The notes beneath the pieces were generated by a model. The model worked only from the letters and a program-made list of their open reading frames with translations, was not told the origin of the DNA and made no database searches. Below are positions 4,316 to 20,935 of a stretch of 39,640 nt of DNA, in pieces (positions within the stretch are counted from its first letter, which is position 1; the number at the start of each line of letters is the position of its first letter). The stretch lies in IMG/VR virus record IMGVR_UViG_2563366929_000005. The stretch is one strand, 5' to 3'. A program made the position numbers and the translations under genes. The stretch is from a virus. Its lineage: Duplodnaviria; Heunggongvirae; Uroviricota; Caudoviricetes.

Positions 4316-4674
4316 TTCTTATTCTCCGGTGCTTTCGGCATTACTGCCCAGTGAGTGATATTGACGTTTTCAAGGTCCCCGACCTGAAATGTCCACTGCC
4401 ATTCTCCGGTTTCTTTTTGTCCCCAGGTGTACCAGAGAGAACGCCAGCCAATTAGCCAGCCTTCTCCGTTAGCATCAAATAACAGAACACTTTCATTTGC
4501 TGGCGGCAGTTCAGCTGACACTGGTATTATTTTGTTTTCCAGTGCCGCACATTTAGCTTCAAGCGCATCGAATTTACGTACCAGGTACTCAGCATTTGTT
4601 TCGTTCACTTTCAGATCTCGCGGTACACATTTCCCGCGAAGAAACCCTTCCATTTCGAAAACATTCATGCGCAT
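4312..4674 (-). CDS. Hypothetical early protein with DUF551-like C-terminus (120 aa)
   Basis: ATG at 4674 with GGAG 8 nt upstream on the minus strand; C-terminal ...ITHWAVMPKAPE resembles the DUF551 tail. Confidence 0.6.
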   Translation of the reverse strand: MRMNVFEMEGFLRGKCVPRDLKVNETNAEYLVRKFDALEAKCAALENKIIPVSAELPPANESVLLFDANGEGWLIGWRSLWYTWGQKETGEWQWTFQVGDLENVNITHWAVMPKAPENKK

Positions 4675-5201
4675 TTGCGTAACTCCGATAACTCGTTAAA
4701 ACGTTCCATAAACATCCCGTAGGCATGGCCCGGTGCCAGTGGAATCACGTTGAACATCTCTGTTGCCGGGATGCCTTCCAGTACAGGCCAGAAAGAGCCA
4801 TCATCAAGCCCGAGATCGCGGCGTTCGGTTGCCAGCATGATGAGATCGGCATATTTCACAGGCGTGCTCATAACCGGGGGTAACCCGTATTTCTCACGGA
4901 TTACGGCATCTATTTTTTCTTCCATCCGTTTATAGTCAGGAAGAAGGCGTTTCAGTGGAGCGGGGATGTCCTGGCAATACGCTTCTGTTGCATCATGCAT
5001 TAACGCTTCAAAAGCAAATTCCTGCGGCACCAGCTGGCTGCAAAGCACCGCATGTTGGGCGACGCTGTAGAAGTGAGAAAGATGACCGGCAAAGCGACAG
5101 ATATTTGAAAGGGAAACCGCGATATCGTTAATAACGATGTCATCTTTATTTATCTTGTCATAATAAAAATGCTTCCCGGAAAAAGTTTTAATAAATGACA
5201 T
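4665..5201 (-). CDS. HD-domain phosphohydrolase (5'-deoxynucleotidase-like), about 178 aa
   Basis: Translation has spaced His / His-Asp motifs (...SVAQHAV... and ...ALMHDATEAY...) typical of the HD superfamily. ATG at 5201 is preceded by GGAGA; the longer ORF to 5228 would start on GTG. Confidence 0.72.
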   Translation of the reverse strand: MSFIKTFSGKHFYYDKINKDDIVINDIAVSLSNICRFAGHLSHFYSVAQHAVLCSQLVPQEFAFEALMHDATEAYCQDIPAPLKRLLPDYKRMEEKIDAVIREKYGLPPVMSTPVKYADLIMLATERRDLGLDDGSFWPVLEGIPATEMFNVIPLAPGHAYGMFMERFNELSELRKCA

Positions 5202-5328
5202 TTTGTTCTCCACGTATATGCGCTGCACCGCGCTGAATTTGGGTAAAAGGAAGCCCTCACCATCCGGTGATTATTGAGTTAATTACGTTTCCATAAATGC
5301 CCCCGCAGGGGCATTTGCAGTAATGAAA

Positions 5329-8000: not shown

Positions 8001-8627
8001 CTAGAGTTCGTATTGAACTCCTTTGACTACACCAATGATGAGGCAATTACCATTGATCGGGATGTTGGGGTACCGGGGATTTAATGGCACTAAAAACTTT
8101 TGAGGGCCATCGATAACTAATTTTTTTACTGTGGCTTCGTTTGTTCCATCAAGTCTAGCGATGACTATTTTTCCATGCCGGGGTTCTGCATCAGGATCTA
8201 CAATCACTGTTGCGCCTTCTGGTATTGTTGGGAGGCCGTTAGGGTTAGTCATGGAGTCGCCTTTAACCTCCAATGCAAATGAGTTATCACCAATCTTTAA
8301 TGATGTATCTACCCACTTGTCTACTTCACTAAACACTTCTGCTGTCCTGCACTCAGTAAACTGCCCAGCCTGAACCCACGAGATTACAGGAACTCTGCGC
8401 ATGTTTGTGACGAGTTTGCCTTCAAACTCCGCACCATAAAGAATGTAATCTATTGACGTATTGAAGAACTTCGCTAATTTTGAAAGTGCTTCCCCACCAG
8501 GGACATTGATGTCTTTCTCCCAGTACCCCACAGCAACGTCACTTACTCCACAAAATTTACCCAATTCTTTCTGGGACGTTCTGGTAACTCTTCTCAGAGC
8601 TTTTATACGCTGACCAACCGTTTCCAT
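8001..8627 (-). CDS. cI: CI-type prophage repressor (N-terminal HTH, C-terminal S24/LexA-like peptidase), 208 aa
   Basis: N-terminal HTH (QKELGKFCGVSDVAVGYWE); C-terminal GDSM (catalytic Ser) and downstream Lys as in the LexA/CI autocleavage domain; divergent from a Cro-like gene. Confidence 0.9.
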   Translation of the reverse strand: METVGQRIKALRRVTRTSQKELGKFCGVSDVAVGYWEKDINVPGGEALSKLAKFFNTSIDYILYGAEFEGKLVTNMRRVPVISWVQAGQFTECRTAEVFSEVDKWVDTSLKIGDNSFALEVKGDSMTNPNGLPTIPEGATVIVDPDAEPRHGKIVIARLDGTNEATVKKLVIDGPQKFLVPLNPRYPNIPINGNCLIIGVVKGVQYEL

Positions 8628-14769: not shown

Positions 14770-14845
14770 GGCCCTTTAGCTCAGTGGTGAGAGCGAGCGA
14801 CTCATAATCGCCAGGTCGCTGGTTCAAATCCAGCAAGGGCCACCA
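14770..14845 (+). tRNA. tRNA with CAU anticodon (Ile2/Met type)
   Basis: 7-bp acceptor GGCCCTT/AAGGGCC, T-arm GCTGG-TTCAAAT-CCAGC, anticodon loop CTCATAA, encoded CCA end. Confidence 0.8.
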
Positions 14846-14852
14846 TCACATA

Positions 14853-14929
14853 CCGCCATTAGCTCATCAGGATAGAGCACCAGCCTTCGAAGCTGGTTGC
14901 GCGGGGTTCGAGTCCTCGATGGCGGTCCA
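14853..14929 (+). tRNA. tRNA-Arg (anticodon UCG)
   Basis: Acceptor CCGCCAT/ATGGCGG, anticodon arm CCAGC-CTTCGAA-GCTGG, T-loop TTCGAGT, CCA end; boundaries +/- 2 nt. Confidence 0.72.
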
Positions 14930-14942
14930 TTATCTGTACCCT

Positions 14943-15019
14943 GCGTTGTTAGCTCAACCGGACAGAGCAATTGCCTTCTAAGCAATCGGTCACTGGTTCG
15001 AATCCAGTACAACGCGCCA
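14943..15019 (+). tRNA. tRNA-Arg (anticodon UCU)
   Basis: Acceptor GCGTTGT/ACAACGC, anticodon arm ATTGC-CTTCTAA-GCAAT, T-arm ACTGG-TTCGAAT-CCAGT, CCA end. Confidence 0.8.
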
Positions 15020-16094: not shown

Positions 16095-16628
16095 ATGAAC
16101 GCAAAAATCAGATACGGCCTGTCGGCTGCCGTTCTGGCACTGATTGCCGTCGGTGCGCCCGCGCCTGATATTCTCGACCAGTTTCTGGATGAAAAAGAAG
16201 GTAACCACACAACGGCATACCGCGATGGTTCCGGCATCTGGACCATCTGTCGGGGTGCCACGATGGTGGATGGAAAACCCGTTTTTCCCGGTATGAAACT
16301 GTCGAAGGAAAAATGCGACCAGGTCAACGCCATTGAGCGTGATAAGGCGCTGGCATGGGTGGAGCGCAATATTAAAGTACCACTGACCGAACCACAAAAA
16401 GCGGGTATCGCGTCATTTTGTCCCTATAACATTGGCCCCGGTAAGTGTTTTCCATCGACGTTTTATAAGCGGCTGAATGCTGGTGATCGTAAGGGCGCAT
16501 GCGAGGCGATTCGCTGGTGGATAAAAGATGGTGGGCGCGATTGCCGCATACGTTCAAATAACTGCTATGGACAGGTTATTCGTCGTGACCAAGAAAGCGC
16601 ATTAGCCTGTTGGGGAATAGATCAGTGA
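16095..16628 (+). CDS. R: SAR endolysin (lysozyme-type), 177 aa
   Basis: N-terminal weakly hydrophobic Gly/Ala-rich SAR segment ([17 protein letters not shown]) followed by a lysozyme-like core; paired with a pinholin. Confidence 0.82.
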
Positions 16629-17092
16629 GCAGAGTCGCCGCGATTATTTATGCTCTGGTTATCTGCATCATCGTCTGCCTGTCGTGGGCGGTCAATCATT
16701 ACCGTGATAACGCCATCACCTACAAAGAACAGCGTGATAAAAAAGTCAGTGAGCTGAAGCAGCTGACCGCCACCATCGCTGACATGCAGCAGCGTCAGCG
16801 TGATGTTGCTGCGCTCGATGCAAAGTACTCGAGAGAATTAGCCAATGCGAAAGCTGAAAATGAAACTCTGCGCGCTGATGTTGCCGCTGGTCGTAAGCGC
16901 CTGCGGGTCAATGCCAGTTGCTCCGCAGCCGTGCGTGAAGCCACCGGACCCACCAGCGTGGATAATGCAACCAGCCCCAGACTGGCAGACACCGCTGAAC
17001 GGGATTATTTCACCCTCAGAGAACGGTTGATGACGATGCAGAAGCAACTGGAAGGGGCACAGCTATACATTCGTGAGCAATGTCTCAGATAA
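16610..17092 (+). CDS. Rz: Rz-like i-spanin (likely starts at GTG 16625, overlapping the endolysin stop)
   Basis: N-terminal TM helix ([19 protein letters not shown]) then a coiled-coil-like periplasmic region; contains the embedded Rz1 ORF. Confidence 0.78.
16845..17030 (+). CDS. Rz1: Rz1-like o-spanin lipoprotein, embedded in the +1 frame of Rz (61 aa)
   Basis: Lipobox LVVSAC, proline-rich mature part ([17 protein letters not shown]), entirely inside Rz. Confidence 0.75.
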
Positions 17093-17247
17093 AAACCGGC
17101 CAAGGATAATCCGCTAAAGATTCGCCGGTGGCGAAAGAGAGCCAAGGTGTCAACCTACGCTATTACTTATGATAATGCAACAGACGAAGCGGGACATATT
17201 GGCGCATAACAAATCAGTGCAGGCTAACTGCAGGAAGAACTTAGGGC

Positions 17248-17514
17248 GTGAACGTAGAAAACCTAAGTAACGCACATTACATCTATAACGAGATGAAAGA
17301 GCTACAGCGACAGAAAGGTATACTGGAAAGTGGTGCAGGGCTTGGTGTGACAATCCAGTCTGCCTATCAATATAGTGCTTTTCTTGAGGCCATACGCCCG
17401 CATGCAGTTGCTGAACTTAACAGCCGTATTGAGGAAAAGAAATCCGCGCTGGTTAATTTGGGTGCTTCCTTCTCTATATACGAGCATAATAAGGCGGGTT
17501 GGAAACCCGCCTAA
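17248..17514 (+). CDS. Hypothetical small protein (88 aa by GTG start; alternative ATG at 17293)
   Basis: ORF downstream of the lysis cassette, convergent with the YfbU-like gene; hairpin GCGGGTT-GGA-AACCCGC at its 3' end. Confidence 0.4.
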   Translation: MNVENLSNAHYIYNEMKELQRQKGILESGAGLGVTIQSAYQYSAFLEAIRPHAVAELNSRIEEKKSALVNLGASFSIYEHNKAGWKPA

Positions 17515-17519
17515 AGCAC

Positions 17520-18059
17520 TTAGAAACTGCGTGGAGCTGTGGAAAGAATGGATGCCAGTTCTTCCTTCGATAAATCCCAGCTTCGATTTACAGCGTCAAT
17601 TTTCTTAAACTCATCAAGCATTGCGTTATAGAGATGTTCTGTACGTGAATGAGTATTGGCAATGGGCTGTTTCTGTTCGGGGAAGCGATCAATTTTCTGA
17701 TATGCCTCAATGATACTGAAGTAATCGCATTCATTATTACCGTCGAAACCTGGGAGCTGAATTGCCCCATCATGTATTTTTAGATGATGGTCACGGACTA
17801 ATTCTTTTTGCTCGTCATCACTAAGTTTCCTGAAAGCATTGGAAAGTCCGCGATACATATTCAAGACAGCAGTAACAAAATCACGATCTTCTTTACTTGG
17901 TTCGTCAACATCCAAATGTGAATATTCGGCCTTGATAACCCAATCATTACCAGATGACACAGCATATTTAACAAGCTGTGGATCAATATCAGTTTCGATA
18001 CCTAGGTGGATGGCAATGTCACATAACAAAATGGTATTGATTTTATCTTTAATATCCAT
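17520..18059 (-). CDS. YfbU (UPF0304)-like protein, 179 aa, opposite-strand moron
   Basis: ATG at 18059 with AGAGGG SD on the minus strand; lower GC than the flanks; motif order (...NMYRGLSNAF...LPGFDG...) resembles YfbU-family proteins from memory. Confidence 0.55.
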   Translation of the reverse strand: MDIKDKINTILLCDIAIHLGIETDIDPQLVKYAVSSGNDWVIKAEYSHLDVDEPSKEDRDFVTAVLNMYRGLSNAFRKLSDDEQKELVRDHHLKIHDGAIQLPGFDGNNECDYFSIIEAYQKIDRFPEQKQPIANTHSRTEHLYNAMLDEFKKIDAVNRSWDLSKEELASILSTAPRSF

Positions 18060-18197
18060 GAGTTAACCCTCTGAAGTAAAAAGTAATATCTACACCCGTT
18101 GGCTCATGAAGTCTATTGATCTGTCTCATATCAGCAGCAAATCTATTCCATGGAGATACTCAATGCAGGTCACCTTTGATTTATATAAGGGCGAAAC

Positions 18198-18548
18198 ATG
18201 CCAGCACTAATCCCACGCGCCTGCCGTAAGCGTGGATGTGCAGGTACAACCACAGACAGTTCTGGTTACTGCGATAAACATCGTGGCGAAGGATGGGTAC
18301 AGCATCAACGCGGACTGAGCCGCCACCAGCGTGGCTATGGCTCGAAATGGGATGCCATACGTGCGCGCATACTGAAGCGTGATAATCATCTGTGTCAGAA
18401 CTGCCTGCGCAATGGGAGAGCCGTTGAAGCCAGAACTGTGGACCACATCATTCCGAAAGCTCATGGTGGCACGGATGCAGACAGTAACCTGCAGAGTCTG
18501 TGCTGGCCCTGTCATAAAGCAAAAACAGCGCGCGAACGCATCAATTGA
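18198..18548 (+). CDS. HNH endonuclease (116 aa)
   Basis: Cys clusters plus TVDHIIPKAHGGTDADSNLQSLCWPCH; typical position just upstream of the terminase. Confidence 0.82.
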   Translation: MPALIPRACRKRGCAGTTTDSSGYCDKHRGEGWVQHQRGLSRHQRGYGSKWDAIRARILKRDNHLCQNCLRNGRAVEARTVDHIIPKAHGGTDADSNLQSLCWPCHKAKTARERIN

Positions 18549-18695
18549 TAACAGCTCCCATCTGCAGGGGAGGGGCGGGTCAAATCTCTGCAACCCTGGC
18601 TGTTCAGTACCGCCGCCTGACCTTTCCTCGCATCGCCGCAGGTTCGAAAACTTTTTTTTGGAATGTGATTAAATGATTGATAGGTAAAACCGATT

Positions 18696-19178
18696 ATGTC
18701 TGGACCCCCGAAAACCCCGCCACGCCTGCATTTGATACGAGGCAACCCCTCAAAGCGGCCAGTTAAAGACCTCAAAAAAACCGCTAAAAAGGATGAAAAA
18801 GGTCTCCCTAAAATTCCGCAACATTTAGGGGCGCAGGGGAAGTACTGGTTCAGGCGAATGGCGGAAGAGCTGAATGCGGAAGGGATCATTTCTCAGCTTG
18901 ATGCGCGTGCGCTTGAGCTACTGGTGGAAGCCTATACCGAATACCGGCATCACTGCGAAACACTCGATGTTGAGGGGTACACCTACCGCTCGGAAACGCA
19001 GAACGGTGATGTGCTGATTAAGGCACACCCAGCTGCTGCGATGAAAGCGGATGCCTGGAAGCGGATCCGGGCGATGCTTGCAGAATTTGGTATGTCACCG
19101 GCAAGCCGGGCAAAAGTAAATACCGCCGGACCGGATAATGTTGATCCGCTGGCAGAGCTTTTAAAAGCGAGAGACTGA
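18696..19178 (+). CDS. Terminase small subunit (P27-family-like), 160 aa
   Basis: AGGTAAAA SD; basic N-terminus; immediately precedes the large terminase with ATGA overlap. Confidence 0.75.
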   Translation: MSGPPKTPPRLHLIRGNPSKRPVKDLKKTAKKDEKGLPKIPQHLGAQGKYWFRRMAEELNAEGIISQLDARALELLVEAYTEYRHHCETLDVEGYTYRSETQNGDVLIKAHPAAAMKADAWKRIRAMLAEFGMSPASRAKVNTAGPDNVDPLAELLKARD

Positions 19179-20935
19179 TGGCAAAAGTGGCTGACGGGAT
19201 CCGCTACGCCGAACGTGTTGTTGCAGGAGAAATTGTTGCTGGCGAATTTGTCCGCCTGGCCTGCCAGCGTTTTCTTGATGATCTGAAGTACGGCGAAAAG
19301 CGGGGGATTTATTTCAGTGAACCCCGTGCGCAGCACATCCTGAATTTCTACAAATTTGTGCCTCATGTAAAAGGGGCACTGGCAGGCCAGCCCATTGAGT
19401 TGATGGACTGGCATGTATTTATCCTCATTAATATTTTTGGTTTTGTCATTCCGCTGGTCAATGAAGAAACCGGGGAAGTTGTCATGCGCAGCGATGGCAG
19501 CGGACGTCCGGTGATGGTGCGCCGGTTCCGGACGGCGTACAACGAAGTCGCCCGTAAAAACGCAAAATCAACCCTGTCATCGGGTATCGGCCTGTATATG
19601 ACGGGGGCAGATAGTGAAGGCGGAGCTGAGGTGTATTCAGCCGCAACCACGCGTGACCAGGCCAGAATCGTGTTTGAAGACGCCAAAAATATGGTCAGAA
19701 AAGCCCGGTCGACACTCGGGCGGTTGTTTGATTTCAACAAGCTGGCGATTTACCAGGAGCAGAGCGCATCAAAATTTGAACCGCTTTCCTCGGATGCAAA
19801 CAACCTGGACGGTCTGAACATCCACTGCGCCATTATTGATGAGCTGCATGCACATAAAACCCGCGACGTGTGGGACGTTCTGGAGACGGCAACCGGTGCC
19901 CGTCTGCAGTCTCTGTTATTTGGCATCACCACGGCTGGCTTTAACAAGGAAGGGATTTGTTACGAGCAGCGTGATTACGCCATCAAGGTATTGCGAGGCT
20001 ATAACAGCGACGTGGAGGGCGCGGTAAAAGACGACTCCTACTTTGCGATCATTTACACGCTCGATGAGGGAGATGATCCGTTTGATGAAACGGTCTGGCA
20101 GAAAGCGAATCCTGGCCTGGGCATCTGTAAACGCTGGGATGATCTGCGTCGTCTGGCGAAAAAAGCGAAGGAGCAGGTCTCTGCGCGGGTGAATTTTTTT
20201 ACCAAACACATGAATGTGTGGGTCACTGCCGAATCTGCCTGGATGGATATGATTAAGTGGGAGAAGTGCGAATACATTGCTCCACAACATGAGCTGAAAA
20301 CATATCCCATGTGGGTCGGCGTCGACCTTGCTCATAAGATTGATATCTGTGCGGCGGCAAAACTCTGGCGAACCGATAACGGACATGTTCATGCTGATTT
20401 TAAATTCTGGCTTCCGGAAGGACGGCTGGAACGATGCTCGCGGCAGCAGGCAGAACTTTACCGGAAGTGGGCGGAGATGGATAAGCTCATCCTGACGGAT
20501 GGTGATGTTATCGATCATGCTCAGATAAAAAGTGACTTACTGGAATGGATTGGCGGTGAAAACCTCAGGGAACTGGGATTTGACCCGTGGAGCGCAATGC
20601 AGTTCAGCCTGGCACTGGCTGAAGAAGGGATACCGCTGGTGGAGGTTCCGCAGACGGTCCGCAATCTGTCAGAGGCCATGAAGGAAACGGAATCACTGGT
20701 TTATGCCGGGCGTTTCCATCACAGCAATCATCCGGTCATGAACTGGATGATGTCTAACGTTACTGTAAAACCGGACAAAAACGACAACATCTTCCCGAAT
20801 AAATCCACGCCGGAAGCCAAAATCGACGGCCCTGTTGCGCTTTTTACAGCCATGAGCCGCTTTCTGGTAAATGGCGGGGGCGTGAATGACTTTCTGTCCA
20901 CGCTTGATCCTGATGAGGACTTGTTAATTCTGTGA
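19178..20935 (+). CDS. Terminase large subunit, 585 aa
   Basis: Size, position before the portal and ATPase/nuclease-like layout. Confidence 0.88.
   Translation: MAKVADGIRYAERVVAGEIVAGEFVRLACQRFLDDLKYGEKRGIYFSEPRAQHILNFYKFVPHVKGALAGQPIELMDWHVFILINIFGFVIPLVNEETGEVVMRSDGSGRPVMVRRFRTAYNEVARKNAKSTLSSGIGLYMTGADSEGGAEVYSAATTRDQARIVFEDAKNMVRKARSTLGRLFDFNKLAIYQEQSASKFEPLSSDANNLDGLNIHCAIIDELHAHKTRDVWDVLETATGARLQSLLFGITTAGFNKEGICYEQRDYAIKVLRGYNSDVEGAVKDDSYFAIIYTLDEGDDPFDETVWQKANPGLGICKRWDDLRRLAKKAKEQVSARVNFFTKHMNVWVTAESAWMDMIKWEKCEYIAPQHELKTYPMWVGVDLAHKIDICAAAKLWRTDNGHVHADFKFWLPEGRLERCSRQQAELYRKWAEMDKLILTDGDVIDHAQIKSDLLEWIGGENLRELGFDPWSAMQFSLALAEEGIPLVEVPQTVRNLSEAMKETESLVYAGRFHHSNHPVMNWMMSNVTVKPDKNDNIFPNKSTPEAKIDGPVALFTAMSRFLVNGGGVNDFLSTLDPDEDLLIL

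Follow-up and report, generated by a model that had tools for sequence, protein, structure and literature searches.

What does a minus-strand gene do in the middle of a plus-strand late operon, and does it act alone or together with the small open reading frame (ORF) that faces it? The question is raised by a segment between the lysis and packaging genes of an Escherichia coli lambdoid/HK97-like prophage. The window, meaning the whole stretch of DNA analysed here (39,640 nucleotides; IMG/VR record IMGVR_UViG_2563366929_000005), spans this prophage from integrase to tail. Judged from its sequence, the 179-aa gene on the minus strand is an autonomous moron of the prophage; its product is a stand-alone member of the YfbU family, from a distinct branch of ~180-aa proteins associated with mobile elements. 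The features of the window on which the argument draws are the following.

1-1236: integrase
8001-8627: CI-like S24 repressor
14770-15019: tRNA-Met, tRNA-Arg(TCG) and tRNA-Arg(TCT), upstream of the lysis cassette
16610-17092, plus strand: Rz-type i-spanin, left flank (identical records annotate it as 'lysis protein' or 'endopeptidase Rz')
16845-17030, plus strand: Rz1 lipoprotein ORF, embedded in Rz
17093-18197: variable cargo segment (moron slot) of 1.1 kb, from the Rz stop to the HNH start, delimited by alignment with related phages
17248-17514, plus strand: 88-aa ORF with a GTG start, on the late-operon strand (phrog_5415, function unknown)
17492-17512, minus strand: GC-rich hairpin with a 9-bp stem, candidate intrinsic terminator of the YfbU-like gene
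17520-18059, minus strand: 179-aa YfbU-family (PF03887) gene with an ATG start, antisense to the late operon
18067-18072, minus strand: Shine-Dalgarno sequence AGAGGG, 7 nt before the ATG of the 179-aa gene
18083-18110, minus strand: weak candidate sigma-70 promoter (-35 TTCATG at 18110-18105, 16-nt spacer, -10 TATTAC at 18088-18083)
18198-18548, plus strand: HNH endonuclease, right flank (PGAP annotation of an identical segment)
18696-19178, plus strand: P27-family small terminase subunit, TerS (PGAP annotation of an identical segment)
19178-20935, plus strand: large terminase subunit, TerL (PGAP annotation of an identical segment)

Both ORFs of the slot were recovered where the initial annotation had placed them, and the flanks agree with its description: Rz/Rz1-type lysis genes on one side, and HNH, P27-type TerS and TerL genes on the other. 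The induced phage vB_EcoS-611R1 is 100% identical to the window over 16600-18700, as are many E. coli chromosomes over 17100-18200; a literature search found no paper on this phage or on vB_EcoS-689R5. The prophage of E. coli 4/4 combines a lysis-to-terminase segment identical to that of the window with a different early region, and its tRNAs (L001:17761-18070) are Ile, Lys, Thr and Gly where those of the window are Met, Arg and Arg. Between these two prophages, modular mosaicism is clear.

Alignment with related phages shows that the segment is cargo. Homology with two close relatives ends at the Rz stop and picks up again ~10 nt short of the HNH ATG. The slot measures only 42 bp in phages 606R7 and phi467, i.e., it is empty, and in phage 640R1 two minus-strand ORFs occupy it, Bor and a small ORF. 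At one site, cargo is present in some close relatives and absent from others, and its nucleotide composition is unlike that of the flanking phage genes (GC of 0.36-0.44 over 17350-18250 and 0.36-0.47 over the slot, against ~0.50-0.56 in the flanks). Such variable occupancy in close relatives identifies a genuine cargo slot, equivalent to the lambda bor position; both the moron position and the lower GC proposed in the initial annotation hold up. The moron concept is reportedly that of Juhala and Hendrix. The bor gene of lambda and other lambdoid lysis-cos morons likewise lie directly downstream of Rz, run opposite to the late operon and are variably present. Their products differ, however: Bor is a lipoprotein that confers serum resistance, whereas the window gene encodes a cytoplasmic, all-helical YfbU-fold protein, in whose 179-aa sequence no signal peptide or lipobox is visible. 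The lysis-terminase slot is a cargo hotspot.

The contents of this slot vary widely. Different prophages carry wholly different cargo, and not YfbU, downstream of a 76-aa form of the small ORF (L028:4259-6681, L029:4600-7706, L032:4086-6283 and L114:4306-4869). This alternative cargo includes glycosyltransferase-like ORFs of 485-490 aa and 196 aa, methyltransferase-like ORFs and membrane proteins; in E. coli C7 it is a 187-aa ORF without a Pfam match. One further locus (L070:4990-6488, IMG/VR 3300011532_000039) holds a YfbU-like gene (62% identity) and a Ser/Thr protein kinase/PP2C phosphatase pair in a single slot, and glycosyltransferase-like ORFs also lie within the lysis-terminase slot of that prophage. 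On a metagenome contig, a distant YfbU homolog lies directly downstream of a protein kinase gene (L022:4808-5902). The proximity of kinase and YfbU genes may reflect an association that recurs; alternatively, the kinase/PP2C pair may be defence-like cargo of its own.

The 179-aa protein belongs to YfbU both by family and by fold. The Pfam model (PF03887/UPF0304) matches residues 46-172 with 46.3 bits against a gathering threshold of 25 (E 6.5e-12), and the PHROG match is 6084, annotated as function unknown. A single-sequence phmmer search of PDB sequences missed the YfbU structure 1WPB, and a profile built from 13 homologs matched both 1WPB and 4LR3 (E 2.8e-9). Fold search recovers the two-domain, all-helical YfbU fold, and the AF2 model is confident. 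The resemblance to YfbU/UPF0304, which the initial annotation had guessed from motif order alone, is therefore confirmed by Pfam, by profile search and by fold. The guess is right at the level of family and fold, and housekeeping YfbU and the window protein are not orthologs; K-12 YfbU shares 21% identity with the latter (pairwise E 0.044), and the NCBIfam equivalog model for YfbU (NF003936) scores 34.8 bits, below its cutoff of 90. RefSeq already names the product "YfbU family protein" (225/5426 E. coli genomes), and a BFVD search returned a single viral structural match, which is nameless. A Cfr10I/Bse634I restriction endonuclease match over residues 38-147 was rejected, as its Pfam score of 18.4 bits lies below the cutoff of 27 (E 0.0015) and the fold search does not support it.

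Comparison with the chromosomal E. coli YfbU (b2294; PDB 1WPB, 4LR3; NF003936) locates the divergence. The two proteins share Pfam family and fold, as well as the GFD, N135 and Y144 positions. The chromosomal protein, 164 aa long against 179 aa for that of the window, lacks the N-terminal LCDI motif and reads GFDAATE...NAQ where the window clade reads GFDGNNE...N(S/T)H. LCDI and GFDGNNE...N(S/T)H are common to the mobile-element members; conserved residues include C13/D14, D106, N108/N109/E110 and H137. Chromosomal yfbU is a core gene in a housekeeping neighbourhood, whereas the window gene is mobile-element cargo. The family as a whole comprises ~2,245 clusters at 50% identity (E <= 0.001), mostly of stand-alone ~180-aa proteins, and the clade of the window protein accounts for only three clusters at this level.

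Strong purifying selection acts on the YfbU-like gene (dN/dS of 0.07-0.13, over dS up to 1.6), and the full-length protein of 179-180 aa is conserved from E. coli to Providencia. Decay of the gene had been named in the initial annotation as a finding that would count against its reading, and these ratios show the opposite. That the ORF is spurious, or the gene a remnant that is decaying or without function, is barely credible: a few truncated variants exist (fragments of 111-156 aa and that of L080), but the constraint analysis refutes this explanation, and the maintained length, the confident AF2 model and the conserved ribosome-binding site argue against it as well. At L080 (2404-4279), the truncated YfbU-like gene encodes residues 87-179 only, with ~1.6 kb of extra DNA before HNH; a disrupting insertion may have caused the truncation.

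The gene carries expression signals of its own. Its ribosome-binding site is kept as AGAG(G/A)G-N7-ATG in eight orthologs of 62-100% protein identity, which bears out the earlier claim of an independent Shine-Dalgarno sequence. It also has its own terminator-like hairpin, for which the initial annotation was partly right. The hairpin is real and stable (-17.4 kcal/mol for a 51-nt segment, z = -3.08), but it is neither situated between the two genes nor shared by them. The intergenic gap is only 5 nt, so the hairpin does not lie there; it is located 7 nt downstream of the YfbU-like stop, within the last 12 codons of the 88-aa ORF. The U-rich tail that follows it (UUAUUAU, an imperfect U-tract) is present on the minus strand only, which makes the hairpin a terminator candidate of the YfbU-like gene and not a shared element. 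A simple terminator scan narrowly missed it. Four diverged loci (Klebsiella L012, Enterobacter L005, Providencia L008 and Citrobacter L018) carry non-homologous hairpins after the stop of their YfbU-like genes, with z of -3.4 to -5.6.

Upstream of the gene, a promoter scan of the minus strand found no consensus-grade sigma-70 site. The weak candidate at 18083-18110 has hexamer-like matches at the same position in orthologs (TTAACA...TATTAA in L066, TATAAC in L067), which suggests, at the level of sequence, that it may be the promoter of the YfbU-like gene. A CRP-like TGTGA half-site of the orthologs reads TATGA in the window and was dropped. Rfam models gave no matches over 16800-18400, and repeat and tandem-repeat searches gave chance-level short matches only, with no ToxI-like antitoxin repeats and no hidden partner element.

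The 88-aa ORF is likewise a real gene under purifying selection (dN/dS of 0.18-0.30). It matches phrog_5415 with E 2e-38 and has no match in Pfam. Its conserved core consists of codons 1-76 (17248-17475), the last 12 codons being a tail that is peculiar to the E. coli variant and spans the hairpin; homologs fall into 276 clusters, with a usual length of 76 aa. The AF2 model predicts a helical hairpin (helices 3-28 and 39-70, pLDDT 76), and a fold search with the 88-aa protein returned generic helical hairpins only (E > 1).

The arrangement of the two genes invites the reading that they form a two-gene module, toxin-antitoxin or sensor-effector, with a shared bidirectional terminator. In both E. 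coli and Klebsiella prophages they lie next to each other and converge across a 5-nt gap, and within E. coli they travel together, the full pair being found in 225 of 5,426 complete genomes, always on the chromosome. Their wider distribution, established from loci fetched independently through each protein, tells against a module. The YfbU-like profile retrieved 78 IMG/VR loci. A homolog of the small ORF is present at 36 of these, essentially those whose YfbU-like protein is at least ~89% identical (E. coli, Klebsiella and Citrobacter types), and it is absent from the other 42. Beside more distant YfbU-like genes of assembled genomes the neighbour is an o-spanin (Enterobacter, 58% identity), an unrelated 65-aa ORF (Providencia, 50%) or an unrelated 122-aa ORF (Citrobacter, 39%). 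The genome loci fetched via the small ORF all lack a YfbU-like gene (5/5) and carry other cargo before the terminase genes. The small ORF also accompanies other cargo in L028-L032 and in strain C7, where the 76-codon core is followed by an unrelated plus-strand ORF of 187 aa, and in 11 E. coli genomes the match to the pair is confined to nucleotides 1-227, corresponding to this core. In-frame stops interrupt the small ORF at L043 (4445-4675) and L060 (4549-4812), where the YfbU-like gene next to it is intact. When the window is compared with Klebsiella L012, dS is 0.54 for the small ORF but 0.24 for the adjacent YfbU-like gene. The one-sided U-tract of the hairpin and the single-gene action of Kamadhenu, a YfbU-fold protein discussed below, also speak against a module.

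The two genes therefore show neither the conserved co-occurrence nor the co-evolution expected of a two-gene module. With independent distribution in both directions and discordant dS, the functional pair envisaged in the initial annotation is not borne out; the module is very improbable, the distribution having largely refuted it. The 88-aa ORF is a late-strand gene independent of its neighbour.

The position of the YfbU-like gene recurs. It has been captured repeatedly, and always antisense, in the lysis-packaging gap of many lambdoid/HK97-like Enterobacterales prophages. At least one lysis or terminase marker is detectable at 71 of the 78 viral loci; at all 71 the markers lie on the strand opposite the YfbU-like gene, with terminase markers upstream of it and lysis markers downstream. 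The arrangement holds whether the packaging module is HNH+P27-TerS/TerL, DUF1441+GpA or Nu1+GpA and whether the endolysin is lysozyme, GH19 or GH108, and it persists where protein identity is as low as 28-39%. The literature searched appears to contain no report of a distinct YfbU clade recurring as an antisense moron between the lysis and packaging genes of enterobacterial prophages.

A variant position is seen in a Pseudomonas luteola prophage (L115:7001-7549), where a YfbU homolog of 30% identity, likewise antisense, separates the Q antiterminator from the lysis genes. This Q-lysis site is the position of stx in Stx phages.

Strict conservation of the site beside the packaging region, in very different phages, would suit a gene that benefits the phage during infection or induction, whether as a counter-defence factor, as a decoy of host YfbU that blocks suicide, or as a regulator where the lysis and packaging modules meet. 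In principle, a viral paralog could also act as a dominant-negative form of a host 'death' protein. Such a role is nevertheless improbable. The gene is antisense to the late operon at every locus examined, so late transcription would oppose it rather than drive it. It is also virtually absent from isolated phages: relatives occur in 4 of 50,697 deposited phage genomes, of which two are induced prophages of E. coli and the other two are entries for a single temperate Yersinia phage. This rarity, together with its absence from the close relatives with an empty slot, indicates that the gene is dispensable for lytic growth. Its occurrence on plasmids and chromosomal islands is a further argument against a benefit to the phage.

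On plasmids, YfbU-family genes are common, with 344 records for an Enterococcus query and further examples in Acinetobacter, Xanthomonas and Kosakonia; the Firmicutes plasmid proteins are ~25% identical to the window protein. Among the distant ~180-aa members, one adjoins an integrase fragment, a NucS-like nuclease and an EcoRI restriction-modification (R-M) system, one shares an Aeromonas island with DUF3800 and NACHT genes, and one, on an Acinetobacter plasmid of 8 kb, has an Abi-family gene next to it. Others have neighbourhoods without recognisable defence genes.

The Enterococcus plasmid form occurs in ~150 records at >=99% identity, with transposases and resolvases flanking it. On plasmid p3 of E. 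faecium Aus0085 (L111:4998-6035), the YfbU-family gene is followed, after 6 nt, by a 170-aa ORF without a Pfam match, and the two may constitute a two-gene unit in the Enterococcus lineage.

Two bodies of published work bear on function. Kamadhenu (pUCCL624_130), a 180-aa YfbU-fold protein encoded on a Lactococcus plasmid, is a single-gene abortive-infection antiphage system (PMC11381338; PMC12184496), and phages that escape it carry one substitution (G22) in a Sak-like single-strand annealing protein (SSAP) (PMC12184496). In E. coli, mazEF-linked death after DNA damage requires yfbU among other genes, and cells deleted for yfbU grow more slowly (PMC2646832). The window gene resembles Kamadhenu in encoding a stand-alone ~180-aa YfbU-fold protein on a mobile element with no conserved partner. 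Kamadhenu, however, comes from a Gram-positive plasmid, whereas the window gene belongs to an enterobacterial prophage; the two proteins are likened by Pfam family and fold, and the antiphage phenotype and SSAP-linked escape are features shown of Kamadhenu only. Plasmid tblastn searches, one started from the window protein and another bridged by an Enterococcus YfbU, gave no Lactococcus record among the matches listed. PADLOC gave no match to the YfbU-like gene, but its 2023 library is older than Kamadhenu, which makes this absence uninformative.

Lysogen-expressed defence is the best-supported guess for the role of the window gene, because Kamadhenu, a 180-aa protein of YfbU fold, is experimentally antiphage. 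Taken together, Kamadhenu, the yfbU literature, the moron-like anatomy of the locus, its confinement to prophages and the neighbourhoods of defence type around distant members point to abortive infection or exclusion as the most likely role. The proposal, which is tentative but could well be correct, is that the gene encodes a lysogen-expressed single-protein abortive-infection or exclusion factor that answers recombination or DNA-damage-type signals. The gene would be expressed from the repressed prophage, and its product would act by itself, in the manner of Kamadhenu, in abortive infection or superinfection exclusion. The trigger may be recombination or DNA-damage-type signals of an incoming phage; this is proposed because Kamadhenu is escaped through SSAP mutation and E. 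coli YfbU is required in DNA-damage-triggered death. In an entirely hypothetical step, the infected cell would then arrest its growth or die. On induction of the prophage itself, Q-antiterminated late transcription, running antisense through the gene, would presumably shut it off, and since convergent transcription opposes expression, the phage might in this way spare its own cell. A partial scan covering ten large ORFs of the window's early region found no SSAP among them. Against the defence proposal stand those distant homologs whose neighbourhoods hold no obvious defence genes, as well as the lack of a consensus-quality promoter in the scan.

The same literature on host YfbU can be read differently. 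The gene could be a lysogenic-conversion or physiology factor without an antiphage role, one that tunes host stress, DNA-damage or cell-death pathways and thereby lysogen survival or the induction threshold. Family and fold are common to the host protein, whose gene is implicated both in mazEF-linked death and in normal growth (PMC2646832), and related phages hold non-defence conversion genes such as bor in this very slot. This explanation is unlikely, however, given how strongly the window protein differs from host YfbU, in identity and equivalog score (21%, and 34.8 bits against 90) as well as in its clade-specific motifs. The sole tested mobile-element protein of this size and fold is antiphage, and distant members neighbour R-M, NACHT and Abi genes.

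The defence proposal can also be extended to the whole branch. The ~180-aa mobile-element YfbU proteins (GFDGNNE...NSH) would then form a widespread class of single-protein abortive-infection systems that sense the SSAPs of incoming phages or their DNA intermediates, carried as antisense lysis-packaging morons by lambdoid prophages across Enterobacterales and on plasmids and islands elsewhere, and silenced on induction by convergent late transcription. In this full form the idea is rather doubtful. Were it true, housekeeping YfbU would be a domesticated relative acting in DNA-damage-triggered death.

YfbU (UPF0304) is a poorly understood family with solved structures, of which one lactococcal member has recently been shown to be antiphage. 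If the enterobacterial prophage clade is antiphage too, Kamadhenu-type defence extends to Gram-negative bacteria, a prophage-borne defence is newly recognised in ~4% of complete E. coli genomes, and E. coli becomes a tractable system for YfbU-fold function. The lambdoid lysis-terminase gap would, in that case, be a mining site for new defence cargo, with kinase/PP2C pairs and glycosyltransferases found there as well. If the clade has no antiphage role, the gene simply adds to the conserved morons of unknown function, and its RefSeq name is already correct. The YfbU-like moron is of moderate interest, a testable lead on an uncharacterised fold and no surprise.

A minor observation concerns the early region of the window, where an ORF on the minus strand (4665-5228) has a sub-threshold match to YfbR-like 5'-deoxynucleotidase (24.2 bits, cutoff 25.9). 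The yfbR and yfbU genes of K-12 lie three genes apart, and the link to this match is probably a coincidence.
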